In this document: positions 2,065 to 57,730 of the stretch, in pieces | Layout of the letters: every line of letters begins with the position of its first letter | Position numbering within the stretch: position 1 is the first letter of the stretch | From: Patescibacteria group bacterium | GTDB taxonomy: Bacteria; Patescibacteriota; Minisyncoccia; Phycocordibacterales; Phycocordibacteraceae | Length of the DNA: 64,000 bases | Reading direction: 5' to 3' | Assembly (NCBI GenBank): GCA_018969385.1 | Contig: JAGWYL010000002.1 | Span: 289 to 64,288 of the forward strand | Position numbers and translations under genes: made by a program | The notes under the pieces: model-generated | The model's input: the letters and a program-made list of their open reading frames with translations, nothing else | Database searches by the model: none | Told to the model about the DNA's origin: nothing

Positions 2065-2092
2065 CTTGCTTCCGCCTGCCTAGGGTGAGGTG

Positions 2093-3627: not shown

Positions 3628-3668
3628 GCAAGGCAGTATACCCTGTGAACGACACGTTCAGCATAGGA

Positions 3669-3763
3669 CTCGTTTCAAAACCGGCTCGGGGTGCGCGGTT
3701 TGAAAGCGAACTCCCCTTAGGCTTTCAAACCGCGCACCCGCTCGCCGGAGATTTTGAAACGAG
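3669..3763. repeat. palindromic MITE/REP-like element, copy E1, immediately 3' of RNase R
   Basis: Outer inverted repeat ctcgtttcaaaa / ttttgaaacgag; inner stem ccggctcggggtgcgcggtttgaaagc / gctttcaaaccgcgcacccgctcgccgg; 13-nt loop. About 80% identical to copies at 25919, 33207 and 49377. Confidence 0.8.
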
Positions 3764-3765: not shown

Positions 3766-5724
3766 CTATTCAGAGGCCGGCACGAAATCCAGCTCCTTCT
3801 CCGGCACGCGCGCAGCGGCAAGCGTGACGCGGATAGGGTCGCCGATGCGGTACTGCTTCTTCGTGCGCCGGCCTACGAGCCGGTATCCCTTCTCATCGTA
3901 ATCGAAATAGTCGTCGCCGAGGTCGCGGATGCGTATCATGCCGTCCGCATGCGTGGTCTGCTCCTCCACATACATGCCGCGGTCGGAGACGCCGGAAATG
4001 ACCGCGTCGAACGCATCGCCCACGCGTCCCGCGAGGTACTCCACCTGCTTCATCTTGATGGAGTCGCGCTCCGCTTCCGTCGCGGCAACTTCGCGTTCGG
4101 AACAATGGATGGCGAGCTGCTCGAAGCCTTCTACCTCGCGGTCGCTCATCGGTTCGCGTCCCGCGTGGTGTTTCAGCAAGCGGTGCACCACGAGGTCCGG
4201 ATACCGGCGGATGGGCGAGGTGAAATGCGTGTAGTGCGTGAAGGCGAGTCCGTAGTGGCCGATATTCTTAGTGGAGTACACGGCTTTCGCCATGGAACGC
4301 AGGGTCGCGGTCTTGATGAGGTATTCTTCCGGCTTTCCTTTCACCTTCTCGAGAAGCTCGTTGATGGCCACGCCCTTCACGTTGCCCGCATGGGTCTCAA
4401 GGTCGTAGCCGAGCACGCGCAGGAACAGGGAGAGATTCTCGATGCGGTCCGCGTCCGGCGCGTCGTGGATGCGGTAGAGGTAGCCGTGGCGCAGGTTCTT
4501 CGAAAGGTCGGCCAGGTGCTCGGCGACGGACTCGTTCGCGAGCAGCATGAAGTCTTCGATGAGCAGGTTCGTGTCCTTGCGCTCCTTGAGATGCACGGCC
4601 ACCGGCTTCCCCGCGTCATCGAGCTCGATCTTCACCTCCGCCGTGTCGAATTCGATAGCGCCGTTCGCCTGCCGCTTCTTCCGGAGCAGCTTCGCGAGCG
4701 TCCGCAGCGTGGAGAGTTCCGCGTGCAGGTCGCCCGCGCCCGCCTCAAGCGTCTTCTGGGCGTCTTCGTACGTGTAGCGGCGGTCGGAATGTATGACCGT
4801 CTCGCCGAACCACCGGTCAAGCACCTTCGCGTTCGCGTCGAGCGTGAACACCGCGGAAACGGCGAGACGGTCTTCGCCCTGCCGGAGCGAACAGAGGTCG
4901 TTCGAGAGCACTTCCGGAAGCATCGGGATGGTGCGGTCCACCAGGTAGACGGAGGTCGCGCGCTGGTACGCTTCCTTGTCGAGTTCGCCTCCTTGCTTCA
5001 CGAAGAACGATACGTCCGCGATGTGTATGCCCACTTCGAACGTGCCGTCGCCCTTGTCCTTGAAGGAGAGCGCATCGTCGAAATCTTTCGCGTCGGCGGG
5101 GTCGATGGTACAGGTCGGCACGTCGCGGAAATCGCGGCGCTCGCCGCTCGCCACGGCGCGTGCGGCTTCCTCGGCAATCATCGCGTGGCCTTCATGCTGC
5201 AGGACTTCCGCCGCCTTCACGACGGCGGGCGGGAAGGCCGCTTCGAATCCCTGTCCGAGCGCGAGCGCGCGCATCTCCGTCTCGTGAACGCCCGCGGGAC
5301 CGATGACCTGCTCGACGACGCCCCACGGAAAATCCGAACCCTCGTCCCAGCCTTTCATGCGGACGAGCACCTTGTAGCCGAGCGGACAGGGAAGCTCGCC
5401 GCGTATGTCGAGCGGCACGTACATCTTCTTGAGGTCGGGAATGAGGAGCGGGCCCTTGTCGTCCATCAGGGTGCCGACGAACGTTTCGCGCGCGCGGGCG
5501 ACGACGCGGACGACCTTCGCGGCCGCGCGCTTCTCACCGGTGCGGGCGTCCGTCTCGAAACCGTCGGGAGCGACCGTCACGACGTCATGATTGAGCGCAT
5601 GATTGAGCGACTCCTTCGGGATGATGAAATCCTCCTTCTCTTCGTCGTATGTGAAAAAGCCCGTGCCTTTGCGGGTTATGGTGATGACGCCTTCGTAGGT
5701 CTGCGCCTGCGATTCCTTGTCCAC
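3766..5724 (-). CDS. rnr: ribonuclease R (RNB-family 3'-5' exoribonuclease)
   Basis: N-terminal cold-shock/OB region, RNB catalytic motif IDPADAKDFDDALS, C-terminal S1-like domain. Confidence 0.9.
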   Translation of the reverse strand: MDKESQAQTYEGVITITRKGTGFFTYDEEKEDFIIPKESLNHALNHDVVTVAPDGFETDARTGEKRAAAKVVRVVARARETFVGTLMDDKGPLLIPDLKKMYVPLDIRGELPCPLGYKVLVRMKGWDEGSDFPWGVVEQVIGPAGVHETEMRALALGQGFEAAFPPAVVKAAEVLQHEGHAMIAEEAARAVASGERRDFRDVPTCTIDPADAKDFDDALSFKDKGDGTFEVGIHIADVSFFVKQGGELDKEAYQRATSVYLVDRTIPMLPEVLSNDLCSLRQGEDRLAVSAVFTLDANAKVLDRWFGETVIHSDRRYTYEDAQKTLEAGAGDLHAELSTLRTLAKLLRKKRQANGAIEFDTAEVKIELDDAGKPVAVHLKERKDTNLLIEDFMLLANESVAEHLADLSKNLRHGYLYRIHDAPDADRIENLSLFLRVLGYDLETHAGNVKGVAINELLEKVKGKPEEYLIKTATLRSMAKAVYSTKNIGHYGLAFTHYTHFTSPIRRYPDLVVHRLLKHHAGREPMSDREVEGFEQLAIHCSEREVAATEAERDSIKMKQVEYLAGRVGDAFDAVISGVSDRGMYVEEQTTHADGMIRIRDLGDDYFDYDEKGYRLVGRRTKKQYRIGDPIRVTLAAARVPEKELDFVPASE

Positions 5725-6812: not shown

Positions 6813-7502
6813 ATGCCGCGATTTCATCTCATAACCCTTTTTCCTGAAGCGTGCGACGCGTACCTCTCCGCGTCCATCATCGGCCGCGCGCGGAAGGAAA
6901 AGAAGATTTCCGTAGACTATACGAACCCGCGCGATTTCGTAACGAACAGATGGGGCAAGGTGGACGAACGTCCGTACGGCGGCGGTCCCGGCATGGTGAT
7001 GCAAGCGCTGCCGATAGTGAAGGCGACCGAGAAGGCGCTCGGAAAGCGCGCGGGGAAGAAAGCCATCGTCTGGTTCCAGCCGGAAGCGAAGCAGTTCACG
7101 AACAAGGATGCGGACGCGCTCGGGAAGTACGACGAAGTCGCATTCGTCTGCGGACGCTATGAAGGCATAGACGAACGCGCGAAAAAGATCCTGAAGGCTT
7201 TCAAAACTAGGACATCCGATGTCCTAGTTTTGAAAGCCTACGCGGTCGGCGAAGCGGTCTATACCGGCGGGGAAGTGCCGGCGATGGCGATGATAGACGC
7301 CATCACCAGGCGGCTTCCGGGCGTGCTCGGCAAGGACGCGTCCGTCGAGGAGCGCCGCGTGTCCTCGCACGAGGTCTACACGCGGCCGGAGACCATCGAA
7401 TACAGGAAGAAGAGATACAAGGTCCCGCCGGTGCTGCGCACCGGCGACCACGCGAAGATGGAGGCGTGGAAACGTAAGAAGAACGGCGCGAAAAAGAGTT
7501 AG
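6813..7502 (+). CDS. trmD: tRNA (guanine37-N1)-methyltransferase TrmD carrying a 15-codon palindromic in-frame insertion
   Basis: TrmD motifs GRYEGIDER and TGGEVPAMAMIDAITRRLPGVLG. The segment KAFKTRTSDVLVLKA between them is encoded by the 45-bp palindrome. Confidence 0.9.
   Translation: MPRFHLITLFPEACDAYLSASIIGRARKEKKISVDYTNPRDFVTNRWGKVDERPYGGGPGMVMQALPIVKATEKALGKRAGKKAIVWFQPEAKQFTNKDADALGKYDEVAFVCGRYEGIDERAKKILKAFKTRTSDVLVLKAYAVGEAVYTGGEVPAMAMIDAITRRLPGVLGKDASVEERRVSSHEVYTRPETIEYRKKRYKVPPVLRTGDHAKMEAWKRKKNGAKKS
7196..7240. repeat. 45-bp perfect palindrome (21-bp arms, 3-nt centre) inside trmD, in frame
   Basis: aggctttcaaaactaggacat-ccg-atgtcctagttttgaaagcct. Core TAGGACATnnnATGTCCTA is shared with 14730 and 55283; outer GCTTTCAAAAC arms resemble the large element family. 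Confidence 0.85.
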
Positions 7503-7623
7503 ACGGCCGAGGTTCTCCGACCCGCCACGCGCTCGATCTGTCCCCGCGAAAGAGGGTCCGATTCTAGTCTTTCGCATGAACAGCTCTTCGCGCGTGGCGG
7601 GTCTTGAAACGGATTCTAGTATT

Positions 7624-7660
7624 CCAAAAAAGAGAAGGCCGCCTTCATGGGGCGGCCTTT
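7624..7660 (-). terminator. intrinsic terminator for the minus-strand histidine phosphatase gene
   Basis: Plus strand reads aaaaaaga-aaggccgcc-ttcatgg-ggcggcctt; on the minus strand this is a hairpin followed by TCTCTTTTTT. Confidence 0.6.
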
Positions 7661-7681
7661 CGCACTGATAGGACTGGAAGA

Positions 7682-8338
7682 TCAATCGAAGTCGTCGAGG
7701 CCGATGACCTCGAGATTCCCGACGTCGGATTCCTCGCCATCACCGATTGCGAATCGGAACCCGTCGGTCTCGCCGAGAATCGTATACTCGATCGTATGGC
7801 CTTCAATCGAACCCGGGAATCCTCCGGCGAAGAGTACCATCGCTGGAATCAGGCTGCCGTGGCCGACAACGAGGATTTCGGTGCTCTCGTCGGGAAGCTT
7901 TGCGAGCTCCCTGAAGAGCGCATCCGCCGCATACAACCCGTAGCAGTTGAGCGCGGCTTTGAAAGCCGGATCTTTACAGTAGGTCGCAAGCGACGCGACG
8001 CCGTATTTCACGTACGCGTCGTCGAGCGTCTTGCCGAGCGTGGTAGACGGGTCGACGATGCCGAACGCGTCGACGCGGATGATATGCGTCTCGCTGATGC
8101 CGCTCACATATGATGCCGTCTGAACGGCGCGTTTGGCAGGCGACGCGAAGGCCGCGTGATACTTCGGCGACAAAAGCGCCTCCCGGCGGTCGGTCGATTG
8201 CCTCGCGCCGAGGAAAGACATGCTGCGAGCGTTATCCATCTCGTATGCGCTCATCCTTTCGGAGAGCGCCTTTTTCAGTTCTTCCGTCAGCGTGACGGCA
8301 TTTGCATGCCGCAGCGCGGTAATGCGACGTGTTGTCAT
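7682..8338 (-). CDS. histidine phosphatase family protein (phosphoglycerate mutase-like / SixA-like)
   Basis: N-terminal RHANA variant of the RHG motif and C-terminal VVGHGSLI. Start moved to the internal ATG (MTTRRITALRH) at 8338. Confidence 0.75.
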   Translation of the reverse strand: MTTRRITALRHANAVTLTEELKKALSERMSAYEMDNARSMSFLGARQSTDRREALLSPKYHAAFASPAKRAVQTASYVSGISETHIIRVDAFGIVDPSTTLGKTLDDAYVKYGVASLATYCKDPAFKAALNCYGLYAADALFRELAKLPDESTEILVVGHGSLIPAMVLFAGGFPGSIEGHTIEYTILGETDGFRFAIGDGEESDVGNLEVIGLDDFD

Positions 8339-8471
8339 CGGAACACTCCATATGTCAGAGGGCGCGCCGCGCCCGTTCGTCCCTACGGCCCCAGCGGCTT
8401 TCGGTCTGATTTCAACATAGCACGAAAAATTGGTATTGTCAAAATAGGGCGGAAATGCTAGCGTTTGCCGC

Positions 8472-10538
8472 ATGGAACTCATCCGTTCGTTCGCACGGAT
8501 TGGGAAGGATGATGCCGCTCTCGCCGGCGGGAAGGGCGCGTCCTTGGGAGAGATGACACGGGTCGGCATACCGGTGCCGCCCGGATTTGTCATCCTCGCG
8601 GGCGCGTTCGAGCGGTTCATCGAGGAGACGGATGTCAATGTGGAAATAGACGCGCTCCTTAGCACCGTGGATACGCGAGACATGCACACGGTGGAAGAAG
8701 CGTCCGGCAAGATTCAGTCGCTCATCCAGCAAGCGACGATGCCCGAAGACATCCGCACGGCAATCATGCAGAGCTTCACGGAGCTCGGCGCGGAATTCGT
8801 CGCGGTACGCTCAAGCGCGACCGCAGAGGACAGCGCGTCGGACGCGTGGGCCGGCCAGCTCGACACGTACCTCAACACCACGGAAGCGGATGTGGTCGCG
8901 AACGTGCAGCGGTGCTGGGCGTCCCTCTTCACGCCGCGCGCCATCTTCTATCGTTTCGAGAAGGGACTCGACGCGACGAAGATATCGGTGGCGGTCGTCG
9001 TGCAGAAGATGGTGCAGTCGGACGCAGCCGGCATCGCATTCTCCGTGCATCCGGTTACGGAGGATTACAACCAGCTCATCATCGAAGGCGGCTGGGGACT
9101 CGGCGAAGCAGTCGTTTCCGGACAGATAACGCCGGACTCGTACGTGGTCACGAAAGAACCGCGCGTCATCATCGACAAGAACATCTCCGAACAAGGTCGC
9201 GGACTGTTCCGCAAGGAAGGGGGCGGAAACGAATGGAAAGAGCTCGGCGCGAAAGGGAACGAGCAGGTGCTCTCTGACGAACAGATTCTCGCGCTTGCCG
9301 ATATCGTCATCGGCATCGAAGGGCACTACGGTTTCCCGGTGGATGTCGAATGGGCGATGGAGGACGGTACGTTCTACATAACGCAGAGCCGGCCCATCAC
9401 CACGCTCACCCCGCCGGTCGCGAAGGAGCCGCCCGATGGTGAAGAAGAACGCGCGAAAAGTGATTCTGAATCATCAACGGAGCGCGGAAACACAGCCGCA
9501 TACGTGAGAGAGATTAAAGCGCTCGATTGGTACCAGGACTGGTCCGGCCTCTATTCGCAGATAGAAGCATCGCTCGACGCCGACGCGTACTTCGGTCATT
9601 TTGAGAACGCGTGCGGCATGCAGTTCTCTCACGCGCTCGTGACTCTCATCGGGGAGACGGCTATCGGGTGGCTTCCGACGAGCGAAGGGGAAGCGATAGG
9701 TGCGCACCTCGTGCGCAAGCTTCAAGAGCCCGCGTTCTTGAAAGAGTGGACGGAGAATTTCCGCAACTATTTCGATCAGGTCAGCGCATTCCTGAAACTG
9801 CCTCGAGAAGAGCTCCTCGCCCGTTACCGGGAATATGCAGACTTATATCCGCAACTGGCTCCCTATACCATCGGCACGAAGCTTGCGTTCAATGCGCTCC
9901 CGCTCGGAAGCGAGCCTATAGCGGCGGAACTGGAGAAGGTCAGGAAATATACGGAACGAATCTATAAGGATTCGGCACTCATGACGAGCGAGCTTTGTCG
10001 CACCATAGCGGAGCGTAGCGGGTATCCGACGGGTGCGGTCCGTACGCTGACGGTCGACGAGATTTCACGATACGGGACGAACGGCACGCTTCCTTCGCAA
10101 TCTACGCTCGAAGCGCGCGCACTAGCCGGTGCCGTGTATCTCATGCCGGGCAAGAGCGTTCTTCTCTCTCGCGACGAAACTGAAGACATCCTCGCGTCAT
10201 TTACGTCCGGCGTGATGAAGGACGGCGCGCTTGTCGGGACGTCCGCGCATCCGGGTATCGTGCAGGGCACGTGCCGCATCGTCTTCGATTTTCGGGACGC
10301 GGTCATGCACGACGGCGACATCCTGGTCACGCCCATGACCAATCCGTACTTCGTCCCGCTCATGAAGAAAGCGGGCGCCATCGTCACGGACGGTGGCGGG
10401 ATGCTCTCGCACGCGGCAATCGTCGCGCGGGAACTCGGCAAGCCCTGCATTATCGGCACGAAGGTCGCGACGCAGGTACTCAAAGACGGCGACATGGTGG
10501 AAGTGGATGCGGAGAAGGGGGTCGTACGGAAGGTATGA
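8472..10538 (+). CDS. PEP-utilizing enzyme: PpsA/rifampin-phosphotransferase-like ATP-grasp + central domain + swivel phospho-His domain, no PEP/pyruvate-binding TIM barrel
   Basis: N-terminal GGKGASLGEMTRVGIPVPPGF (PPDK_N ATP-grasp); C-terminal GGMLSHAAIVARELGKPCIIGT (mobile His domain). 688 aa, so no room for a C-terminal PEP-binding domain. Confidence 0.85.
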   Translation: MELIRSFARIGKDDAALAGGKGASLGEMTRVGIPVPPGFVILAGAFERFIEETDVNVEIDALLSTVDTRDMHTVEEASGKIQSLIQQATMPEDIRTAIMQSFTELGAEFVAVRSSATAEDSASDAWAGQLDTYLNTTEADVVANVQRCWASLFTPRAIFYRFEKGLDATKISVAVVVQKMVQSDAAGIAFSVHPVTEDYNQLIIEGGWGLGEAVVSGQITPDSYVVTKEPRVIIDKNISEQGRGLFRKEGGGNEWKELGAKGNEQVLSDEQILALADIVIGIEGHYGFPVDVEWAMEDGTFYITQSRPITTLTPPVAKEPPDGEEERAKSDSESSTERGNTAAYVREIKALDWYQDWSGLYSQIEASLDADAYFGHFENACGMQFSHALVTLIGETAIGWLPTSEGEAIGAHLVRKLQEPAFLKEWTENFRNYFDQVSAFLKLPREELLARYREYADLYPQLAPYTIGTKLAFNALPLGSEPIAAELEKVRKYTERIYKDSALMTSELCRTIAERSGYPTGAVRTLTVDEISRYGTNGTLPSQSTLEARALAGAVYLMPGKSVLLSRDETEDILASFTSGVMKDGALVGTSAHPGIVQGTCRIVFDFRDAVMHDGDILVTPMTNPYFVPLMKKAGAIVTDGGGMLSHAAIVARELGKPCIIGTKVATQVLKDGDMVEVDAEKGVVRKV

Positions 10539-11986
10539 AGCTGCGCGAACGAGTGGAGGCGGTGCAGGACTGGGCAATCCTTAACAGCAGCGGAGTGCCG
10601 TACATACTAGGCGTCGCGCTCCGTCAATTCACAGAAGAAGTACGGAAGCGCTATCCCGACAATACCGTCATGCCGATGTGCGGTGCGCATTTCACGAAAG
10701 CGGGTTCGGTCATCCAGTTCCTTGCAGCCGCAGAACCGTATGGCCGCTCCTTCGAGAAGATAATCGCTGAGCCGGAGATGCTCGCTCGCGCGTATGCGGA
10801 CTTCGAAGCAGCCGAAGAATCGCTTAAGGCGTTTGCTGTGAAGTCGCAAGAGGACGAAGAGTATCGCGAGTTCCAGTACCCGGCATTCATACGGGCGTAT
10901 GATGCTATGTACGCTTCCGGACTACTGGTCGACGGCACGCTCATTTCCGGAGAGAAGGTATTCTCGTCCGTCTTGGAGCGGTACCCGGCTCATGCGCAGG
11001 CACTCCGCTCTTTCGCGCAATCCGAAGGGCTTACATTCAATGCACGATATCGCCGTGCTGAGTTGCGCTTCGCGAAAGAGATTGAAGAGGGAAGCGTGAG
11101 TCAAGCCGAAGCCGCCGTCTCGCTCGCACGGGACTTCTACTGGATGCACAACAATTACAAGAACGTTTCGGCGCTGCCCGTCTCATTCTTCGCAGGACAG
11201 CTTGAGGAAGCGCGCAAAGAGTCATCGGATAGCCGTGACACGGAGCTTGCGGAACTTGATACGTATGCGGAGCATCGCGCCGCCTTATGTGCGTCGCTCC
11301 GGCGCGAAGCTGCTCTCTCAGACGCAGACTACGAGACGCTCACGTGGTTCGGACGCATCACCTGGTGGGTCGATAGGCGCAAGGAGTGCAACCTCATCGC
11401 GAATCACCTCATAGGTAAGCATCTCACCCGTGTAGCGGCACAGCACGACATTCCTTACGAGGACGCCGCTTTTCTTCTCCCGTGGGAACTGGAAGCCGTT
11501 TTCAGCGGCAAGCGTACGATTGACTCCTTCAATCTGTCTGCGCGAAGAGAGGAGAGCATATACTTCCACGACGAAGACGGCGAAGGATTCTTCGTCACTG
11601 GAACAGAGTCCAAGGAGCTTTGGCGTAAGATATCGCCGCCTGTCTCTTCCGAGGATGCGGAAATCAAGGGCACGGTAGCCCAAAAGGGCGTGGCGCGCGG
11701 CATCGCGCGTATCGTGCCGGTCGCGCACCATCCAGGCACGTTCAATTCTGGCGATATCCTCGTCACCGGCATGACGCGGCCGGATTTCCTCGGGCTCATG
11801 AAGAAGGCCGCCGCTTTCGTCACGGACGAAGGCGGCATAACCTGCCACGCCGCCATCGTCGCCCGCGAGATGAAGAAGCCGTGCGTCATCGGGACGAAGG
11901 TCGCGACGCAAGTCCTGAAGGACGGTGACCTCGTGGAAGTGGATGCGGAGAAGGGAGCCGTGCGCATCATCGAGCGTGCGGCATAA
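10535..11986 (+). CDS. PEP-utilizing swivel-domain protein, paralog 2 (distinct N-terminal region, no ATP-grasp)
   Basis: ATGA overlap with the upstream stop; C-terminal GGITCHAAIVAREMKKPCVIGTKVATQVLKDGDLVEVDAEKG is nearly identical to genes 1 and 3. Confidence 0.75.
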   Translation: MKLRERVEAVQDWAILNSSGVPYILGVALRQFTEEVRKRYPDNTVMPMCGAHFTKAGSVIQFLAAAEPYGRSFEKIIAEPEMLARAYADFEAAEESLKAFAVKSQEDEEYREFQYPAFIRAYDAMYASGLLVDGTLISGEKVFSSVLERYPAHAQALRSFAQSEGLTFNARYRRAELRFAKEIEEGSVSQAEAAVSLARDFYWMHNNYKNVSALPVSFFAGQLEEARKESSDSRDTELAELDTYAEHRAALCASLRREAALSDADYETLTWFGRITWWVDRRKECNLIANHLIGKHLTRVAAQHDIPYEDAAFLLPWELEAVFSGKRTIDSFNLSARREESIYFHDEDGEGFFVTGTESKELWRKISPPVSSEDAEIKGTVAQKGVARGIARIVPVAHHPGTFNSGDILVTGMTRPDFLGLMKKAAAFVTDEGGITCHAAIVAREMKKPCVIGTKVATQVLKDGDLVEVDAEKGAVRIIERAA

Positions 11987-11993
11987 TAGCTGT

Positions 11994-13010
11994 ATGGAAC
12001 CCATGCATCTGACGAAAGAATACGAACGCGATATATCCGTCGTACTCGAGGAATGGTGGACACGCGGATTCGTCGACCTCATTCCTAAGCGATACGGACT
12101 TACGAATCCGGACCAGCCGTACGTCGTCTTCTATTCGACAGGAGAGAATCTCCAGATATGGGAGCATAAAGCGGCGTTCGATCGGTTCAAGGATTGGCTC
12201 CTTGGGAAGAACCAGGAAAGCCCGGCCTTCCTTGAATCCGTTATCGCCGCGTACCGTCCTGTCGCAGAGAAGGCAGCGGCTCATTTCGCGCGCGGTGCAG
12301 AAACCGAGCTGGACGCGGTCAAGGAGTACGCCGAACTCGCGCGTGAGGGCATCATGCTTTTCTCGATTTGGTATTACAGCGGGTATGACGAGCGGACACC
12401 GGAGGAGGTCCGGAAACTCGCGATAGCGCTTCGCGCGACTGACGAATTCTTCGCGCGGAACGATAAGCACATAAAGGACTCGCTCATCGCCCGCGGCGTT
12501 CCTGCGGAGTACGCCGGACTCGTCTTCCATGAAGAGTTCATTAGTCCGCCGCCGCGCGAGGTGCTTGCTACGCGCGCGGGCGGCATGGTGTCCATAGATG
12601 GCGATGTGCGTTTCAATATGACACTTACGGATTTTGCGGCTGCGCATCCCGGATATTCGTTCGAAGGACTGCACGCAGCAGGCGCTCCGGTGACGGAACT
12701 CAAGGGACAGGTGGCGCAGAAAGGGAAGGTGAGAGGTGCCGTGCGCATCGTAAAGAACAAGCGGCAGATGGAGAACGTCGCGGAAGGGGATATCCTCGTC
12801 TCGCCCATGACCACGCCTGATTTTCTTCCTGCGATGAAGAAAGCGGCGGCATTCGTGACCGATGAAGGCGGCATCATGTGCCACGCCGCCATCGTCGCGC
12901 GCGAGATGAAGAAGCCGTGCGTGATAGGGACGAAAATCGCTACGCAGGTGTTGAAAGACGGCGATCTCGTGGAAGTGGATGCGGAGAAGGGAATCGTGCG
13001 GAAGCTCTAG
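11994..13010 (+). CDS. PEP-utilizing swivel-domain protein, paralog 3 (distinct N-terminal region, no ATP-grasp)
   Basis: C-terminal GGIMCHAAIVAREMKKPCVIGTKIATQVLKDGDLVEVDAEKG; start at internal ATG (MEPMHL) 8 nt after the gene-2 stop. Confidence 0.75.
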   Translation: MEPMHLTKEYERDISVVLEEWWTRGFVDLIPKRYGLTNPDQPYVVFYSTGENLQIWEHKAAFDRFKDWLLGKNQESPAFLESVIAAYRPVAEKAAAHFARGAETELDAVKEYAELAREGIMLFSIWYYSGYDERTPEEVRKLAIALRATDEFFARNDKHIKDSLIARGVPAEYAGLVFHEEFISPPPREVLATRAGGMVSIDGDVRFNMTLTDFAAAHPGYSFEGLHAAGAPVTELKGQVAQKGKVRGAVRIVKNKRQMENVAEGDILVSPMTTPDFLPAMKKAAAFVTDEGGIMCHAAIVAREMKKPCVIGTKIATQVLKDGDLVEVDAEKGIVRKL

Positions 13011-13119
13011 GATGTCGCGACGCCTCCTTTCCTTAGTAGTTTTTGCATCGTAGTTTCGCGTTTCCCATCAGGCTGGATGCCTAGGCGGTAGCGCGGGCGA
13101 AAGTGGTACACTGGCAGGC

Positions 13120-13476
13120 ATGGAGATCCTGGTGACGCGCGAGCCGACTGATGAGAAGACGCTTCGCGCGCTCGCGGATGCGTGGTTCGGCGACATGGTG
13201 AAGGGCGCGATAGACATCGCGCGCGGCACCCTTGCGCTCGGCGGCGACTGGCACATGGATGCGAACGTAAAGCTCATAGAGGACGGCTCGTCGCAGGAGG
13301 ACGTATGGGGATTCAACGTCTATCCGGAGAAGCGCGGCGATGACGCCATCGAATACATATCGCTCATCAACATCCGTCCGCGGCAGGGGAATCGCGATAT
13401 GGAACTACAGGATCCGACCCTGCGCAGGAAGGTGCGGGAGACGGTCGCGCACGCGATACCCTTCCTCGGCCTATGA
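13120..13476 (+). CDS. hypothetical protein
   Basis: 118-aa ORF in the same orientation as neighbours; compact soluble-looking composition; no motif recognised. Confidence 0.5.
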   Translation: MEILVTREPTDEKTLRALADAWFGDMVKGAIDIARGTLALGGDWHMDANVKLIEDGSSQEDVWGFNVYPEKRGDDAIEYISLINIRPRQGNRDMELQDPTLRRKVRETVAHAIPFLGL

Positions 13477-13754
13477 ATCGCGACGCGCGCTTTTATTTCA
13501 TGAATCTGTGCGCGGACGTCGCGCGCTCGACCGCCGCGGCCGAGCGCGGGGATGAAAACGCGCTTATCAATTCGCGCGCGCGGATAGGGAAGACGCTCGA
13601 ATACCTGCGCCGCGAAAAGAATCCGGCGGCGTATGAAGAAGGACTGCTGCTCGTGCGCGGTTTCGAGCTTGCTCGCGCATCCGGAGCGCTTCCATCTTTC
13701 GGTTCGAACATGAGCGTGCTCATGCGTCCGCTCTCGTCGCGCGAACTCGTTTGA
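13473..13754 (+). CDS. hypothetical protein
   Basis: 93-aa ORF with ATGA start/stop overlap to the upstream ORF (translational coupling). Confidence 0.4.
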   Translation: MNRDARFYFMNLCADVARSTAAAERGDENALINSRARIGKTLEYLRREKNPAAYEEGLLLVRGFELARASGALPSFGSNMSVLMRPLSSRELV

Positions 13755-13930
13755 ACGCGGGACGGATTTGCGAACGCAGCGAGTCGTTGCATACTTGTCG
13801 TATCGCCCGCCTCCCTTAGGGCGGACGAGGGATGATGCAGTGTCACGGTGCGGGACTATGCGCGCGGTGACGGGGTACTGGCACTCCCATCATCCGGCCA
13901 GGACAGGCCATAACGGTAAGGAGAAGGTCT

Positions 13931-14599
13931 TTGAAGATGATAGACGTGAACAAACTCCTTGTGACGGGACAGGTGCCCGCGTACCTGGTGGCGAAGTGGG
14001 AAGAGAGGTGGGGTGTGAACCCCACGGTCATCGCGGCGAAGGTTTTCCGGAATCAGCGCATCGTTGACCGGACGAACCTCATTGCGTTCGGCATTACGGG
14101 TGCGGTTCTTATGCTGACTATCCTCTATGGCACGGCGAAGCTCATCTGGTCCCACCTGTCGCCGGATGACGTGACGTACCTGATGGCGTCGGACCTCGCT
14201 GTCGTTTTCATCTGCGGGTCCGTGGGCATGACGGCAATGATGCGGTTCAAGACGCTGGACTTCGAGCTGTTTCCGCGTGAAGCATGCGGGTTCGACGTCC
14301 TCTACAGCTGGTTCGTCTCCGCAAGCGGAAAGACCGCAGAGGAGCTTGCGCCGCAGGACGGCACCCGGCTTCGCGCCATCGCGAAGCAGATACTCGTGGA
14401 CCTCGCGCTCATGGTACTCAAGGCGGAAGCCAAGACGAGAAGCGCGGACGGGAGCGAACCCGACACGAAGCTCAAAGAAGCCGAGGTCGCGTGTCGCCGC
14501 ACCTTCGACAAGGGTCTCATCGAGATGCAGCGTCTCTTGCCCATTGATGCGGACAAGAACGTCTACTACCGCGAAGCGAGAAAGCAATTCGCTTCGTGA
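13931..14599 (+). CDS. hypothetical membrane protein (2 TM), distant paralog of 14990..15625
   Basis: AAGGAG-like RBS upstream; two hydrophobic helices; C-terminal helical region with weak similarity (ELAPQDG..LRAIAKQILVDLA vs ELPKDSE..LRMLADKVLFDAA). Likely true start is the ATG (MIDVN) 6 nt downstream of the track TTG. Confidence 0.55.
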   Translation: MKMIDVNKLLVTGQVPAYLVAKWEERWGVNPTVIAAKVFRNQRIVDRTNLIAFGITGAVLMLTILYGTAKLIWSHLSPDDVTYLMASDLAVVFICGSVGMTAMMRFKTLDFELFPREACGFDVLYSWFVSASGKTAEELAPQDGTRLRAIAKQILVDLALMVLKAEAKTRSADGSEPDTKLKEAEVACRRTFDKGLIEMQRLLPIDADKNVYYREARKQFAS

Positions 14600-14613
14600 G
14601 CCCTCATAGGGCG

Positions 14614-14647
14614 GGGCGGACCATCAATGGCCCGCCTTTCTTTTTAT
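14614..14647 (+). terminator. intrinsic terminator (GC hairpin + TTTCTTTTT), near-identical to the one at 15646
   Basis: ggggcggaccatcaatggcccgcc followed by tttctttttatt, immediately after the stop at 14599. Confidence 0.6.
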
Positions 14648-14729
14648 TCCGAAGTCCGGCCGCGCGACTGAAAGAGCAGGGAAATTGCGGGCAAGATGTT
14701 AACGACTCACCGCGTTCGCAAATCCGTCC

Positions 14730-14764
14730 CATAACGCTAGGACATCGGATGTCCTAGCGTTATG
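14730..14764. repeat. 35-bp palindrome with TAGGACAT-N3-ATGTCCTA core
   Basis: cataacgctaggacat-cgg-atgtcctagcgttatg; same 19-bp core as in trmD (7196) and at 55283. Confidence 0.7.
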
Positions 14765-14827
14765 TCCTCACTGATTGCGCTCGCGCGTTCGCGGTCATGC
14801 GAGCAGGTAAGCGGCAAGGCACAGAAG

Positions 14828-14856
14828 TTGCGTCCGTGCTAATTTTATGGTATAGA
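14828..14856 (+). promoter_or_regulatory. candidate sigma70-like promoter for the 14990 gene
   Basis: -35 TTGCGT, 17-bp spacer, -10 TATAGA preceded by TGg (TGGTATAGA); then a structured leader (ccacctc...gaggtgg, ccgcagc...gctgcgg). Confidence 0.4.
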
Positions 14857-14989
14857 TTTTCCACCTCGTGTCTTGCCTTAGACAGAGGTGGATGTTGAAA
14901 GTTCCGCAGCTTCCTTGAAGCCTGCTGCGGATGAGGGTTGAATCCTCGATACGTCCGGCGGTTGAACGCCTATAGGCTTGGAGTGAACC

Positions 14990-15625
14990 TTGATGAAACT
15001 GAGATATCTCGTCCACTGTGCGGACAGACGGGAGATTCCCGAAACGCTCGAACTGAACTGGGCGAAACGTACCGGTTTCATGCCGGTGAAAGACGCTATC
15101 AGGCTCGAGCACGGCTGTGCGAACTACCGGCTCGTCGGCTATGTGCTCTGCTTCCTGCTTGCGACACAGCTCATCACGCTGTTCGGCCTGCGGCAAGAAG
15201 ATATGTATCTGTCTTCCGGCGTTGCTCACTTCATCGGCATATCCGTGGGAGTTCTCATCGCGAGCATCGTCTTAGCTTTCGTCTGGGGCTACGGCCGGAT
15301 AGCGGAAGTCGGCGACAAGGCGAGGTATGAAGACGCGAAAGCATTTGCCGCAGCGTTCGCTGCGTTCCTCGAGTGGACCTGCAAGTGGCCACAGGAGTTG
15401 CCGAAGGATTCCGAGGAACTCCGCATGCTTGCGGACAAAGTGCTCTTCGACGCTGCGGGACAGCTTCAGGAACACGAAGCGAGCGACCACACGGCAAAAG
15501 GCTACCTTGCGCACCACGGCGCGCTCCATGCGGAGTTCACGAAGCGGCACACGGCGCTCGTCATGATGGGGCTTGCCGTCCCAGACTGGTCTGACTATTT
15601 CAAGAGCGGCGCAAAGGCCGCGTAA
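14990..15625 (+). CDS. hypothetical membrane protein (2 TM), distant paralog of 13931..14599
   Basis: Same architecture (short N-terminal region, 2 TM, ~110-aa helical C-terminus) and weak sequence similarity to the upstream gene. Confidence 0.55.
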   Translation: MMKLRYLVHCADRREIPETLELNWAKRTGFMPVKDAIRLEHGCANYRLVGYVLCFLLATQLITLFGLRQEDMYLSSGVAHFIGISVGVLIASIVLAFVWGYGRIAEVGDKARYEDAKAFAAAFAAFLEWTCKWPQELPKDSEELRMLADKVLFDAAGQLQEHEASDHTAKGYLAHHGALHAEFTKRHTALVMMGLAVPDWSDYFKSGAKAA

Positions 15626-15645
15626 ACGGTTTCTTTCGCTTTTTT

Positions 15646-15680
15646 GGGGCGGACCAGCGATGGCCCGCCTTTCTTTTTGT
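15646..15680 (+). terminator. intrinsic terminator, near-identical copy of 14614..14647
   Basis: ggggcggaccagcgatggcccgcc followed by tttctttttgtt; 3 mismatches over 38 nt versus the copy after the upstream paralog. Confidence 0.6.
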
Positions 15681-15939
15681 TCCCAGCACCCTTGCCCACG
15701 CCGCTTGCGCATCGGCCCTTGGCCGTGAGCGTTGTCCACAACGCGGAAGCGGGTGTGGGGGCTTGCGCCTATGCACGGAGGCTGGTATCTTTAGGACTAC
15801 CAGAGCGGATTGAGTAACGGTGGGGCATCTGGGGGCCACATTTTAATTACCAAGAAGCGTCTCGATATGACGAGAGACGTCCTCCGTACCTGCGCGGAGC
15901 TTTCGTTATTTTCCGACCTTCTCTAAGGACCTTTCCTCT

Positions 15940-52864: not shown

Positions 52865-52999
52865 GGATGCGTCCGCAGAAAACGGAAAGGGAAATATCCG
52901 TGCCCGCATGAACGGACGGCGAACGCCTGCGCTGCAAGCGACTGCTCGGATTTCGCCTCATATTTTTTTCATGTTCGCGCGGGCATGTATAATCGGCGG

Positions 53000-54688
53000 A
53001 TGACGCAGGCCGACGCACTCTCCATACTGAAGACCGGCGCGAACGTATTCCTCACCGGCGAACCCGGAAGCGGGAAGACGCACACCGTGAACGCGTACAT
53101 CGCGTGGCTCCGCTCTTGCGGCATCGAACCGGCGGTGACGGCGGCAACCGGCATCGCGGCGACGCACGTGGGAGGGGCCACCATCCACTCGTGGAGTGGC
53201 ATCGGCATCAAGGAATATCTTTCGCCCGCGGATGTCGATGCCATCGCCTCGAAGGAGCATGTCGCGCGCCGCATCCGGAAGGCGAAGGTGCTCATCATCG
53301 AAGAGGTTTCCATGCTGTCCGCGGCGACCTTCGGCATGGCGGACGCGGTGTGCCGCGAGGTGCATCAGCGGGACGCGCCGTTCGGCGGCATGCAGGTGAT
53401 TCTCGTCGGGGATTTCTTCCAGCTTCCGCCCGTCTCGCGCGGGAAGGAGGTCCTGTTCTGCTACGCTTCGCCCGTATGGCGGGAACTCTCCCCGCTCGTC
53501 TGCTATCTCGAAGAACAGTACCGCCAAGAGGATGGCGCATTCCTCGGTGTGCTCTCCGCCATCCGCGCGAATGCGGTGGAGGACGAGCACTATGAGACGC
53601 TCGCCGAAAGACGCACGGATGCGGATGCGATTCCGGAAAACGTACCGAAGCTGTTCTCGCACAATGCGGACGTGGACCGGATAAACGCGGCGGAGCTCGC
53701 CAAGCTGCCGGGATTCGCCATGCGGTTCCTCATGAAAAGCGCGGGCGGCGCGTCGTCCGTCGAAGGCCTCATCCGCGGCTGCCTTTCTCCCGAGACGCTC
53801 GAACTCAAGAAGGGGGCGGCGGTCATGTTCACGAAGAACGACCCGGCGGGCCGGTTCGTGAACGGCACGCTCGGCGTCGTCGTCGATTTCGCGAAGGCGG
53901 ACAATACGCCGGTGGTGGAGACGCGGGACGGCAAGCGCGTGTACGTGGAGCCTGCGGATTGGAAATTGGAAACGGACGGGAAGGTGCGCGCGAGCATCAC
54001 GCAGCATCCGCTGCGGCTCGCATGGGCCATGACGGTGCATAAGAGCCAGGGGCAGAGCCTCGATGCGGCGGTCATCGACCTCTCCCGCGCGTTCGAGTAC
54101 GGGCAGGGATACGTCGCGCTCTCGCGCGTGCGGACGCTTTCAGGGCTGTATCTTCTCGGGCTCAATAATCGCGCGCTTTCCGTGCATCCTGAAATCATCG
54201 AGAAAGACGCGGACTTCCGCGCATCAAGCCGCGCGGCCGCGGCGGCGTTCACGGACATGCCCCGGGATGAGCTTCAGGACATGCAGAAGCGTTTCGTGAA
54301 GGCGGCGGGCGGCGCGTGGATGGACGAGGAGCAGGGAAGCGACGCGGGGAGCCGGCATGAATCCCGCGGCGGCTTTGCCGCCGCGGGATTCATGCCGGGC
54401 AGGCTCGCGGAGACGCTCGAGGCCGTCCGCGACGCCCGCACACTTTCCGAAGCGGCGGATGCGCGCGGCCTTGCCGTTTCCACCATCGTGCATCACCTTG
54501 AGGAACTCTCCGCGCTCGGCGTGCTCGCGAAAAAGGATTACGAACACCTGCTTCCGGAAGACGAAGCGCTCGAAGAGATTCGCGCAGCGCTTGCGGAATC
54601 GGAGGACGAAAAGCTCGCACCGGTCTTCCGCGCCCTCGGCGGCCGCCACTCGTTCGAGGTCATCCGCCTCGCGCGTCTCGCGAAGTAG
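53000..54688 (+). CDS. Pif1/RecD-family 5'-3' DNA helicase
   Basis: Walker A LTGEPGSGKT, Walker B LIIEEVSM, motif VI AMTVHKSQGQSLD. A perfect TATAAT lies 8 nt upstream of the ATG at 53000, giving a leaderless-like start. Confidence 0.85.
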   Translation: MTQADALSILKTGANVFLTGEPGSGKTHTVNAYIAWLRSCGIEPAVTAATGIAATHVGGATIHSWSGIGIKEYLSPADVDAIASKEHVARRIRKAKVLIIEEVSMLSAATFGMADAVCREVHQRDAPFGGMQVILVGDFFQLPPVSRGKEVLFCYASPVWRELSPLVCYLEEQYRQEDGAFLGVLSAIRANAVEDEHYETLAERRTDADAIPENVPKLFSHNADVDRINAAELAKLPGFAMRFLMKSAGGASSVEGLIRGCLSPETLELKKGAAVMFTKNDPAGRFVNGTLGVVVDFAKADNTPVVETRDGKRVYVEPADWKLETDGKVRASITQHPLRLAWAMTVHKSQGQSLDAAVIDLSRAFEYGQGYVALSRVRTLSGLYLLGLNNRALSVHPEIIEKDADFRASSRAAAAAFTDMPRDELQDMQKRFVKAAGGAWMDEEQGSDAGSRHESRGGFAAAGFMPGRLAETLEAVRDARTLSEAADARGLAVSTIVHHLEELSALGVLAKKDYEHLLPEDEALEEIRAALAESEDEKLAPVFRALGGRHSFEVIRLARLAK

Positions 54689-54754: not shown

Positions 54755-55093
54755 TCACGCGGCCAGCAGGAGTCGCTTGAAAAGGTAGATGATTCCGCGG
54801 ATCAGGAGCGCTGTGAGGCACCCCAGCCCGAACGTGAAAGAAACGGCCAGCGCGACGACGAGAACGCGGGCCATTCCGTTCACCGCTACCAGATACCACG
54901 CATAGTCAGGCGCGTGATAGCCGACGGTGCACGTAGCTGCAAAGAGCAGCACTTCCGTGAACCGAAGGTTGTCCTCGCTCCATCTCGGCTTAACCCCGAA
55001 GTGCCCGTGATGATACAAGGAGACAAGCGTGGTGGCGATAAGCAGGGTCACGGAGACCCACTCTATTGGCGTGTGCATAAAGAACTCCTCCAT
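54755..55093 (-). CDS. small hypothetical membrane protein (3 TM)
   Basis: Hydrophobic 112-aa ORF preceded by a strong sigma70-like promoter; alternative start MHTPIEW at 55078. Confidence 0.5.
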   Translation of the reverse strand: MEEFFMHTPIEWVSVTLLIATTLVSLYHHGHFGVKPRWSEDNLRFTEVLLFAATCTVGYHAPDYAWYLVAVNGMARVLVVALAVSFTFGLGCLTALLIRGIIYLFKRLLLAA

Positions 55094-55137: not shown

Positions 55138-55282
55138 TACCCGTGTCGGATACGCGCGCTCTAGGAAAAACCGTATATACGCGGCCTTTTGGACTGCGGA
55201 ACGAGAAAATAAAAAGCCGCCCTATTATGAAGCCGGGGCGGCGCGGCTGTTGGAACGGACTTCCCAAGTACGACACACTTAT

Positions 55283-55307
55283 ACGTAGGACATAGTATGT
55301 CCTACGT
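55283..55307. repeat. 25-bp palindrome with TAGGACAT-N3-ATGTCCTA core, 24 nt 3' of the P-type ATPase stop
   Basis: acgtaggacat-agt-atgtcctacgt; shares its core with 7196 and 14730. Confidence 0.6.
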
Positions 55308-55330
55308 AACATGCTGGGTGTGCCGCCGCG

Positions 55331-57730
55331 CTACGCGGAAGCGTGCGCGAGCGGCGGCGCGTTCGGCTTCACGCCCGGTTTCGGGCTCATCATCTTGAAT
55401 ATCTCGGCTATCTGCATCCAGAAGAAGGACCAGACCCAGACGAACGCGATAAGCCACAAGGGAAGCGGCGCGGTGAAGATGCCGAAGAAGGCCCACGCGG
55501 TGGCGAGCAGCTGCGTGAAGGTGACGGCGCTCACGACCGGAAGGCTCGGGAGGAAGCGGAACCAGCGGGAGGACGTGTGCGCGACGTACACGAGCAGGTG
55601 TCCCGAAACGACGAGCTTCAGGAAGAAGAGCGTCTGGATTTCCGCCCACGGAAGGCGCAGGTATCCGTACGCGAACATGAGCATGAAGATGCTGTTCGCG
55701 ATTCCCGAGAGTCCGTAGAGTATGGAAAGCTTCGCGCGGCGGCGGCCGTCGATGCTCGAAGGCGCATGCGGAACGTGCACGCGGTCGAACGCGATGGAGA
55801 TGATAGGGACGTCGTTCAGGAAGGCGAGCAGGAGCACCTGGATAGGCGTGAGCGGATAGTTCCCGATGGAGACGCCGATGATGGCGATGGTGAGGATGAG
55901 CCGGAAGCTTTCCGACATGCGGTAGACGGAGTAGTGGTAGAGGCGGACGAAGACCTTGCGCGCTTCCGTGATGGCGGTGGCGATGACCGAGAGCCCGTTC
56001 GAGAGGAGGACGATGTCCGCGGTCTCCCGCAAGGCGTCGACCGAACCCGCGACCGCGATGCCGACGTCCGCGTCCGCGACGGACGGCACGTCATTCACGC
56101 CGTCGCCGGTGACGGCGACGCGCGATACCTTCTTCGCCGCTTCGACCGCGGCATACTTATCTTTCGGCAGCACTTCCGCGAAGGCGGCCGTGTGCGGGAG
56201 CGCGGCCGCAAGCTTCGCCGGGTCGTCGAAGATGTCGCGCGTGTACACGTCGCCGACGAGCCCGAGCTCGTCGGACACCTCGTGCGCGATGGCGTCATCG
56301 TCGCCCGTGAGCATCGTCACCTTGATGCCTTCCTCGCGCATCGTCTCTACGGTCGCCTTCGCGTCTTCCCGCAGCGTGTCCGCGAGGAACAATAGGCCGA
56401 CGGGCTCGAGACCCTCCTCCTTTTCCGAACCTTTGCGGACGGATACGGCAAGCGTGCGGTCGCCGCGCTTCGCCGCGCCGAGGACGGCGTCCGTGAACGC
56501 CGTGCGCTCCCCGGCGGAGAATTCGGAGCGGCTCTCGAGCACGGACGGGGAACCGAGCACGACCATCCAGGACTCGCCATCCCTCGTCACCGTCGCGGTC
56601 GCGCGCTTGCGTTCCGAGTCGCCCGGGATGAACGCTGACTGCGGATACATGGGCGCGCCCGCATCCTTCGCCGCATCGCGCACGGCCTCCTCAAGCGGAT
56701 TATTGTCCGCGGGGTCCGTGGCGGACGCGCCGAACGAGAGGAGGTCGGCCTTCGCGTACGCGCCGAAGAGCTGCACCTCCGCGACCCGTATGTGATTTTC
56801 CGTGAGCGTGCCGGTCTTGTCGGAAAGGAGCAGGTTCACGTTCGCGAGGTCCTCAAGCGAAGAGAGACGCCGCACCACGGCTCCGCTTCTCGCGAGGACC
56901 AGCACGCCGGCGCTGATGATGAGGCTCATGACGGTGGGAAGCGCCACCGGGATGCCCGCGATGAGGAGCGATATGTCGAGCGTGGCGATGTCCGCATATG
57001 AGTTCGAGTGGAGCAGGAGCGCGCCCGTGAGGACGACCATCGCGCCGATGGCGAAGAAGGACAGGTAGCGGGAGATGGCGAGGATGTCATGCTCGAGCGC
57101 GGAACGCTTGCGCGCCATCTCCACGGTCTTCACCGTGGTGCCGAAGTACGTCCGCGCGCCCGTTGCGGTGACGAGCGCGTTCGCGGACCCCGTCACCACG
57201 AACGAGCCGGAGTAGAGGATGTCGTCCTTCGCCTTCTCTTTCGGGAGCGATTCTCCCGTGAGCATGGACTCGTTAATCGAGAGGTTCGAGCCCGAAAGCA
57301 CCTTCGCGTCCGCGGGGACGATGGAGCCGACGCGAAGCGCGATGAGGTCGTCGGGAACGAGTTCCGCCGCCGGTACGGTCTTCCACGCGCCGCCGCGCAG
57401 CACGTTCGCGGAAACGGCAAGGTGCTCTTCGAGCTTCGCGACCGCCTGGTCGGCCTTATGCTCGTGCCAGAGCTGCACGCCGTAGTTAGCGAGCAGGAGG
57501 AAGAGGATTATCCAGCCGTCCGGAATCTTGCCGCTCGCGAACGAGAGCGCCGCCGCCGCGACGAGCATGAGCGGGATAGGGGAGAAGAACCACTTGATGA
57601 ACTTCTCGATGCCGCTCTTCTTCTTCGCAGCGATGGCATTTTCTCCCACGCGCGCGCGGACGCGCGCGGCTTCCTCGTCGGTGAGACCGGCGAGTACGCG
57701 AGGCGCGTCCGCTAGAGGGGCATCGCTCAT
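55331..57730 (-). CDS. cation-transporting P-type ATPase (P2/P3-like; no heavy-metal CPC motif)
   Basis: Phosphorylation site LLSDKTGTLTEN, hinge TGDGVNDVPSVADADVGIAV, ~10 TM helices. Confidence 0.9.
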   Translation of the reverse strand: MSDAPLADAPRVLAGLTDEEAARVRARVGENAIAAKKKSGIEKFIKWFFSPIPLMLVAAAALSFASGKIPDGWIILFLLLANYGVQLWHEHKADQAVAKLEEHLAVSANVLRGGAWKTVPAAELVPDDLIALRVGSIVPADAKVLSGSNLSINESMLTGESLPKEKAKDDILYSGSFVVTGSANALVTATGARTYFGTTVKTVEMARKRSALEHDILAISRYLSFFAIGAMVVLTGALLLHSNSYADIATLDISLLIAGIPVALPTVMSLIISAGVLVLARSGAVVRRLSSLEDLANVNLLLSDKTGTLTENHIRVAEVQLFGAYAKADLLSFGASATDPADNNPLEEAVRDAAKDAGAPMYPQSAFIPGDSERKRATATVTRDGESWMVVLGSPSVLESRSEFSAGERTAFTDAVLGAAKRGDRTLAVSVRKGSEKEEGLEPVGLLFLADTLREDAKATVETMREEGIKVTMLTGDDDAIAHEVSDELGLVGDVYTRDIFDDPAKLAAALPHTAAFAEVLPKDKYAAVEAAKKVSRVAVTGDGVNDVPSVADADVGIAVAGSVDALRETADIVLLSNGLSVIATAITEARKVFVRLYHYSVYRMSESFRLILTIAIIGVSIGNYPLTPIQVLLLAFLNDVPIISIAFDRVHVPHAPSSIDGRRRAKLSILYGLSGIANSIFMLMFAYGYLRLPWAEIQTLFFLKLVVSGHLLVYVAHTSSRWFRFLPSLPVVSAVTFTQLLATAWAFFGIFTAPLPLWLIAFVWVWSFFWMQIAEIFKMMSPKPGVKPNAPPLAHASA

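Follow-up and report, generated by a model that had tools for sequence, protein, structure and literature searches.

The short palindrome that recurs in the stretch of DNA analysed here (64 kb, hereafter the window) very probably represents a set of non-autonomous REP-like hairpins, which belong to a Patescibacteria (CPR)-specific REP/RAYT system whose RAYT is known from related genomes. The core of the palindrome is dispersed in CPR genomes, brackets a RAYT-like gene and has copies inside genes, and the copy in the trmD gene of the window is missing from all close homologs compared (15 of 15), all of which favours the mobile palindrome family suggested in the original prediction. A search of the literature found no published description of the element; the 15-mer was in none of the papers searched, and no link between REP/RAYT and CPR was found in them.

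Palindromes in the window

With up to one mismatch allowed, GGACATNNNATGTCC has exactly three matches in the 64 kb (7210-7224, 14740-14754 and 55288-55302). The pattern GGACAT-N3-ATGTCC, starting at 7210, 14740 and 55288, was likewise observed three times against 0.12 expected from shuffles, and none of 100 shuffles reached three, which confirms the threefold recurrence claimed before. The core common to the three copies is the 19-mer TAGGACAT-N3-ATGTCCTA at 7208-7226, 14738-14756 and 55286-55304; all three sites had been located correctly in the original prediction, whereas its core coordinates were a few bases off. Each core is embedded in a longer perfect palindrome, the outer arms of which are locus-specific and different at each of the three sites. 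Copy 1 (7195..7239; 45 bp, centre CCG, 'AAAAC' subtype) lies in trmD, copy 2 (14730..14764; 35 bp, centre CGG, flank pair GC) is intergenic, and copy 3 (55282..55308; loop AGT, flank pair CG) measures 27 bp rather than the 25 bp previously proposed, the lengths of the other two being as predicted. Folding as single-stranded DNA gave a dG of -23.1 kcal/mol (z = -10.8) for copy 1, -17.1 kcal/mol (z = -9.1) for copy 2 and -11.7 kcal/mol (z = -7.1) for copy 3. At the gathering threshold, no Rfam family was found in the whole 64-kb window, and no tRNA, rRNA or riboswitch was detected. The copies are three singlets, each already a full palindrome, with no doublet among them, and they represent three different subtypes, whereas the subtype is uniform within a genome in other MAGs. 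Such a mixture without doublets could indicate relics, not an active population, and the window copies may be either relics or products of more than one enzyme.

Copy 1 was placed correctly within trmD (tRNA m1G37 methyltransferase; 6813..7502, plus strand; PF01746), an intact ORF of 229 aa as compared with 214-225 aa in most close homologs; a protein identical to the window TrmD (P0001) is recorded on two contigs. A codon alignment places a net insertion of 21 nt (seven codons) at 7209..7229 on the plus strand. The inserted codons, AGG ACA TCC GAT GTC CTA GTT, encode RTSDVLV (TrmD residues 133-139), and copy 1 is read in frame as K-T-RTSDVLV-L. The peptide is missing from every one of the 15 close TrmD homologs compared (72-81% identity) and the 21-nt insert from four of four orthologous DNA loci, which shows the trmD copy to be a genuine in-frame insertion. 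The core is read in an open frame, and the frame that starts with TAG is closed. In a TrmD model of moderate quality (mean pLDDT 71), the insert lies mostly in the loop between helix 120-131 and strand 138-144, within a block of low confidence (mean pLDDT 60).

The outer arms of copy 1 show how the palindrome may have been extended. Its upstream arm, (A)GGCTTTCAAAAC (7195..7207, plus strand), matches the reverse complement of the downstream arm exactly and encodes A-F-K, as against T-(M/L/V/I/F)-(G/A) in all 15 homologs (consensus T-M/L-G). The downstream arm, TTG AAA GCC, retains the conserved L-K-x with native L-K-A codons. Since the upstream arm mirrors the downstream one and its length is unchanged, it seems to carry the signature of intrastrand template switching. 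Sequences orthologous to the trmD arms are not palindromic, which rules out a pre-existing palindrome as the insertion target at trmD; for the intergenic copies, a target of this kind is possible. Among the CPR copies listed that are paired through position 5, 10 of 47 reach at least eight pairs, as compared with approximately 1.6% expected. Judging from these alignments, hairpin-templated conversion at the site itself appears to be the source of the outer arms, and such locus-specific extensions of a palindrome would constitute a natural record of hairpin-templated mutagenesis.

Copy 2 is intergenic, as predicted, and is located between two hypothetical genes (ORFs 13931..14599 and 14990..15625); the promoter-like site proposed near it was not recovered, no promoter being called in its vicinity by the promoter scan. 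It falls within the trmD-rpoB interval (~7500-15930), which is approximately 8.4 kb long in the window and approximately 0.9 kb, with one hypothetical gene, in the relatives L117-L119. This block looks like a lineage-specific insertion. Two genes in it (8472..10538 and 11925..13010) resemble, by eye, genes for PEP-utilising enzymes.

Copy 3 follows the stop codon of a minus-strand P-type ATPase gene (55331..57730) at a distance of 23-24 nt, in agreement with the 24 nt given earlier. A 643-nt segment (54688-55331), on the edge of which copy 3 is situated, has no counterpart in the relative L121, where the ATPase and helicase genes are approximately 20-40 nt apart; by this comparison the segment is lineage-specific. 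It contains a 112-aa gene, a promoter, a hairpin followed by a T-run, and copy 3. The hairpin and T-run (~55205-55245, minus strand) were seen by eye, and the terminator scanner made no call there because the loop of the hairpin is longer than 8 nt. Metagenome relatives of the ATPase (49-64% identity, too distant for an empty-site comparison) conserve neither the REP nor the promoter variant described below at this place.

The promoter in this segment, TTGACA-17-TATGAT (11 of 12 matches; 55109-55137, minus strand), is that of the 112-aa membrane-protein gene (54755..55093). It was correctly noted before that a variant of the palindrome, TGACATggtATGTCA (55122-55136), overlaps the -35 box, and also the spacer, of this strong minus-strand promoter. 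The variant folds weakly (-3.9 kcal/mol, z = -2.0), its T..A form (TGACAT...ATGTCA) occurs once as compared with 87 G..C forms in 478 kb of element-carrying CPR DNA, and it was not found in the ATPase-linked loci of relatives; together, these results rule it out as a member of the family. By a rough estimate, approximately 0.05 exact matches to GACAT-N3-ATGTC would be expected by chance in 64 kb. The variant may be an operator unrelated to the family, or it may simply coincide with TTGACA.

Other palindromes are also present in the window. A second, unrelated family has arms of approximately GGGTGCGCGGTTCGGAAGC, 12-13 nt apart, at 3689-3739, 25931-25997, 33218-33284 and 49403-49448, with a degenerate copy at 2097-2150 and a half-site at 41453. 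One of its copies immediately precedes the RNase R gene and thus falls in the interval that holds the RAYT in relatives. None was found in the 128 loci compared; its absence from 8 kb of MAG REEB44 (L099) is uninformative on the kinship of that MAG to the window. In addition, a perfect 47-bp palindrome (54352-54398; 22-nt arms, 3-nt loop, CCGGCATGAATCCCGCGGCGGC...) is located inside a 567-aa helicase-like ORF (52985..54688). The part of the ORF around it could not be aligned with L121, and the palindrome may be an in-frame hairpin insertion of a different kind.

The palindrome family and its associated transposase gene

The 19-mer was scanned against one genome per species in 185,579 species, which yielded at least 115 matched loci; taxon labels of these loci are those of the database records, and copy numbers per genome are lower bounds. 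The matches listed are overwhelmingly from Patescibacteria (CPR). Among them, the loop is C-S-G (C-C-G or C-G-G) in 73 of 122 copies, as compared with approximately 3% by chance, and all of the 67 C-S-G loci listed are labelled as CPR or unclassified MAG, except L105. These labels comprise Kaiserbacteria, Paceibacterota, Adlerbacteria, Nomurabacteria, Zambryskibacteria, Saccharibacteria, 'Patescibacteria group' and unclassified MAGs. The true core of the element is thus TAGGACATC-S-GATGTCCTA, in which the central base alone is asymmetric, and the unit of the family is a 29-bp palindrome, AAA-NN-TAGGACATC-S-GATGTCCTA-NN-TTT.

Flank pairs 1 to 5 are complementary in 95, 86, 85, 70 and 64% of copies, and beyond pair 5 complementarity drops to approximately the background level (0.25-0.3). 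Flank positions -3 to -5 are mostly A, whereas positions -1 and -2 vary and yet stay paired; this covariation preserves pairing, which points to a hairpin rather than a recognition sequence read in duplex DNA. The base before TAG is T in 47%, C in 34%, G in 18% and A in 1% of copies, and the TAG itself pairs with CTA inside the stem of CPR copies. The NN pair is genome-specific, for example 'TG' in DATEBU01, 'GT' in REEB12, 'CC' in MFMT01 and 'AC' in CAIWUA01. Doublets are common in CPR loci: the 100 copies listed include 20 pairs spaced 22-66 nt apart, and in 19 of these pairs the spacing is 22-36 nt. The C-S-G 19-mer had no match in a scan of viral contigs, which gives no sign of phage carriage, and a metagenome scan for the 23-mer of the AGT-loop subtype returned no match.

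Several matches deserve separate mention. L105, from a Candidatus Azotimanducaceae MAG, is a typical CPR-type REP under a gammaproteobacterial MAG label, and the RAYT-family protein P0231 bears the same taxon label; either a mis-binned CPR contig or horizontal transfer would account for this label. In Streptomyces, Nonomuraea and Actinophytocola, TAGGACAT-GGG/CCC-ATGTCCTA is present at L024, L026, L028, L029, L033, L042, L052, L063, L077, L078, L084 and L114, and the Streptomyces site adjoins a conserved sequence of approximately GTGAACAGGTCTATTGTGCTCGACA. This site is conserved in its own right, has no relation to the CPR element and is plausibly an actinomycete operator. A metagenome contig (L122) contains a different short palindrome, GGACGTTTAACGTCC, at 3947-3961 and 4163-4177, around a CPR-type REP at 4127; the organism in question may thus have a further family of hairpins.

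In all six complete cases (L017, L055, L060, L079, L093 and L115), two copies of the palindrome bracket one gene of approximately 217 aa. The bracketing copies are 688-707 bp apart; one precedes the start codon by approximately 20-40 nt, and the other follows the stop codon by 0-20 nt. A homolog of this gene is present in 12 of the 115 loci listed and lies within approximately 90 nt of a copy in 10 of them, the remaining two being approximately 310 nt (L065) and 2.7 kb (L103) away. The protein passes the Pfam model Y1_Tnp (IS200-like; 30-33 bits vs a cutoff of 23). Its sole NCBIfam match is REP_Tyr_transpos (NF047646), with 40-44 bits against an equivalog cutoff of 80, which indicates that the CPR protein is a distant relative and not an equivalog. 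The sole match among PDB sequences is 4ER8 (E. coli TnpA-REP), with which the HUH motif and the equivalent of Tyr115 align. H69, H71 and Y131 are invariant in alignments of the family, and a C-terminal Y-x-W-S-S motif is invariant or nearly so. An AlphaFold2 model (pLDDT 86, pTM 0.85) had 4ER8, a structure entitled 'REP-associated tyrosine transposase bound to a REP hairpin', as its top Foldseek match (E = 1.2e-4), followed by the IS608, ISDra2 and IS200 transposases; the fold match is modest (TM 0.48-0.61). At E <= 1e-10 the family comprises 4,627 clusters, annotated only as 'transposase' or 'hypothetical', and RAYTs of different CPR lineages are approximately 50% identical. Judged by sequence and fold comparisons, the gene is predicted to encode a RAYT-type Y1/HUH tyrosine transposase, closer to RAYT than to insertion-sequence TnpA.

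Dispersed copies share the NN subtype of the copies that flank the RAYT gene of their own genome ('GT' in REEB12, 'CC' in MFMT01 and 'AC' in CAIWUA01). Similarly, the 'AC' subtype of window copy 1 is that of the RAYT-flanking copies in the related genome behind L055, a locus whose RAYT has sequence alignable to the window to its left and right, and the 'CG' flank and AGT loop of copy 3 are those of the REP beside the RAYT gene of L099. The REP-RAYT-REP unit lies beside the RNase R gene in four related genomes (L055, L060, L087 and L093); in L055, L060 and L093, the three that extend as far as the SMC gene, this gene lies on the other side of the unit. This constant position fits vertical inheritance, not a hopping insertion sequence. 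In the window, the interval that matches the RAYT site of these relatives contains a glutamate dehydrogenase gene instead, and a tblastn search with two RAYT proteins found no RAYT homolog in the 64 kb (best E = 0.79). The relatives L116-L120, which are without RAYT at that locus, have no copies of the element in approximately 35 kb.

Copies of the element are also present in frame in other CPR genes. By a lenient criterion, 28 of the 76 copies listed lie inside ORFs of at least 120 aa, several of which (e.g., L007, L012 and L060) are probably spurious antisense ORFs or upstream read-through; the evidence for genic copies was thus limited to Pfam-verified cases. In-frame copies with Pfam domains on both sides are found in RecG (L002 and L037), DnaE (L003), LeuRS (L020 and L097), PheT (L100), TsaD (L009) and the class-V aminotransferase encoded by a cysteine desulfurase gene (L057), and the peptide encoded by genic copies is RTSDVL or GH(P/R)MSY. 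The two LeuRS insertions are offset within one variable loop and are thus independent events. In RecG, a doublet occupies the same position in L002 and L037, and its two cores are identical over 21 and 15 nt, whereas the recG genes share 70% DNA identity and only 46% at third-codon positions. Core identity in spite of such divergence suggests maintenance, homogenisation or re-insertion; in this comparison the loci had been chosen by the first core, which introduces a bias, and the second core was not selected for. As for DnaE, the L003 fragment (862-3726, minus strand) is a CPR DnaE fragment that carries an intein with a LAGLIDADG domain as well as the in-frame REP doublet CPTSDVGHPMSY, that is, two kinds of selfish insertion in one essential gene.

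Proposed mechanism and alternative explanations

From the observed sequence family, hairpin covariation, association with a transposase gene, fold with catalytic residues and trmD insertion, we infer a possible sequence of events that covers catalysis, mobilisation, a template-switch step and any effect on the host. As single-stranded DNA, the 29-bp palindrome would fold into a hairpin of approximately 13 bp with a 3-nt loop. A RAYT-type enzyme may bind this hairpin, probably at replication forks, and would cut and rejoin the strand by means of its HUH metal site and catalytic tyrosine, thereby seeding copies around the chromosome. Copies that survive in essential genes would be those in frame, with the TAG frame avoided, and in tolerant protein loops, as in trmD with its seven additional amino acids, in a genome densely packed with genes. 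After insertion, intrastrand template switching on the hairpin could replace one flank by a reverse-complement copy of the opposite flank, and this would give the long locus-specific perfect palindromes of copies 1 and 2. Copy 3 sits in the 3' untranslated region of the ATPase gene, where it may incidentally stabilise the transcript.

It is extremely unlikely that the palindrome serves as an operator at which a dimeric transcription factor reads GACAT half-sites in duplex DNA, with TGACAT...ATGTCA as a weaker operator at a -35 box. Perfect dyad symmetry around a fixed 3-nt (effectively 1-nt) centre would suit such an operator, as would the variant across the -35 box of an 11/12 promoter and the position of copies approximately 35 nt upstream of RAYT start codons, where binding could repress the RAYT gene. 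However, nine or more copies are deeply buried in verified housekeeping genes, copy 3 follows a gene on its 3' side, the promoter scan made no call near copy 2, and the copies as a whole have no consistent relationship to promoters. The flanks covary for pairing and not for sequence, and the variant on which the operator argument of the original prediction relied is neither a family member (one T..A form vs 87 G..C forms in 478 kb) nor conserved at ATPase-linked loci. An adjacent regulator gene, which had been suggested as a check, was not consistently present; the conserved neighbour is the transposase gene. Host-selected structural signals in RNA or DNA, such as mRNA 3'-end stabilisers, weak bidirectional terminators or RNase III sites, with the transposase-like gene merely a carrier, are improbable too, if somewhat less so than an operator. 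The very stable stems are in keeping with them, as are the classic stabilising-REP position of copy 3, between the ATPase stop codon and the hairpin with T-run (~55205-55245), and the identity of the L002 and L037 RecG cores, which implies maintenance at the DNA level. Yet an invariant 19-nt sequence, common to lineages with RAYTs only approximately 50% identical, is more than a purely structural signal would call for. Such a signal would also leave the bracketing of RAYT in six of six cases and the matching of subtypes unexplained, and is hard to reconcile, as a terminator, with copies in essential coding regions; no matching Rfam family was found either.

About as improbable as structural signals is an ordinary autonomous IS200-like insertion sequence, of which REP-RAYT-REP would be the complete form and the solitary palindromes solo ends or excision footprints. 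The unit of approximately 700 bp with identical subterminal hairpins is like IS200, the TnpA proteins of IS608 and ISDra2 are the next-best fold matches, and the sources annotate the protein simply as 'transposase'. But the unit is fixed beside the RNase R gene in four genomes, which argues for vertical inheritance and against hopping, and hairpins are far more numerous than RAYT genes in the sampled loci (at least 100 copies vs 12 matches). Furthermore, single-strand 'peel and paste' transposition is generally known to leave no hairpin footprint, and both the doublets 22-36 nt apart and the in-frame genic copies fit independent mobilisation of hairpins. The REP/RAYT reading is therefore preferred, and the window sites are better annotated as repeat elements than as regulatory operators. 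A bolder form of it, which we put forward only tentatively and consider rather doubtful, is a vertically inherited REP/RAYT system, common to a wide range of CPR bacteria, whose perfectly symmetric hairpins are actively kept at the DNA level in essential genes, grow by templated copying, write peptide loops (RTSDVL or GH(P/R)MSY) into proteins and reshape adjacent codons. If this were true, such hairpins would be a previously unrecognised route by which peptide loops are added to the core proteins of reduced genomes.

Comparison with known systems

REP/RAYT systems (REPtrons) include E. coli TnpA-REP with REP/BIME and the REPINs of Pseudomonas (PMC3479197, PMC5581495, PMC3116915), and CPR lineages are unmentioned in a survey of RAYT groups (PMC5581495) and a survey of HuH enzymes (PMC6006769). 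The CPR system resembles them in having a short palindromic repeat with many dispersed copies that brackets a Y1/HUH transposase gene, conserved HUH and catalytic Tyr residues with 4ER8 as the best structural match, a conserved chromosomal position of RAYT consistent with vertical inheritance, TAG at the 5' foot of the hairpin, and frequent doublets. The differences are also considerable. In the E. coli REP, the 5' GTAG is unpaired and the palindrome is imperfect, with a bulge or mismatch on which binding depends (PMC3479197), whereas the CPR element is a perfect symmetric palindrome without a bulge, its TAG is base-paired in the stem and G precedes TAG in only 18% of copies. The CPR protein is longer than E. 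coli TnpA-REP (~217 vs 165 aa), its conserved C-terminal region (Y-R-W-S-S...) is longer as well, and its NF047646 score is below the NCBIfam equivalog cutoff (40-44 vs 80 bits). REPs are extragenic, whereas many CPR copies are intragenic and translated; and proteobacterial REPs differ between species, whereas the 19-nt CPR core is common to lineages labelled as different CPR classes. A system of the REP/RAYT type common to many lineages of CPR would extend 'domesticated' single-strand transposase systems well beyond the taxa in which they have been characterised, and its conserved 19-nt core and fully symmetric hairpin would offer a simple substrate for biochemistry.

With the IS200/IS605 elements (IS608, ISDra2 and IS200), the CPR system shares the Y1/HUH fold, subterminal hairpins recognised in single-stranded DNA and a unit of approximately 700 bp. 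It differs from them in that the transposase gene looks immobile, judging from its conserved synteny, the hairpins being the dispersed entity, and in that both ends are the same symmetric hairpin instead of distinct left and right ends.

Quasipalindromes can be corrected by intrastrand template switching, as described in the Ripley model and at the quasipalindrome mutation hotspots of E. coli. The upstream trmD arm looks like a product of this process, with simultaneous substitutions that turn one arm into the exact reverse complement of the other without a change in length. What would distinguish the CPR case, as read from its apparent products, is repeated action at the foot of a mobile hairpin, extending into unique flanking sequence.

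The in-frame copies recall the Rickettsia palindromic elements (RPEs), which were reportedly described by Ogata et al. in 2000 as selfish palindromic DNA inserted in frame in protein-coding genes. RPEs are approximately 100-150 bp long, and to our knowledge no cognate transposase has been identified for them. In both cases, palindromic repeats lie in frame in essential housekeeping genes of a reduced genome and contribute short peptides at tolerated positions. The analogy is one of behaviour only: the sequences are unrelated, and the CPR unit is 29 bp, adds approximately 7-10 codons and is associated with a RAYT-like gene. The genomes of CPR/Patescibacteria are small, and repeats and mobile DNA are usually said to be scarce in them. 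The in-frame copies in trmD, leuS, recG, dnaE, pheT and tsaD add peptide segments to essential proteins, and such copies matter for the annotation and alignment of CPR proteins and for the origin of insertions in reduced genomes.
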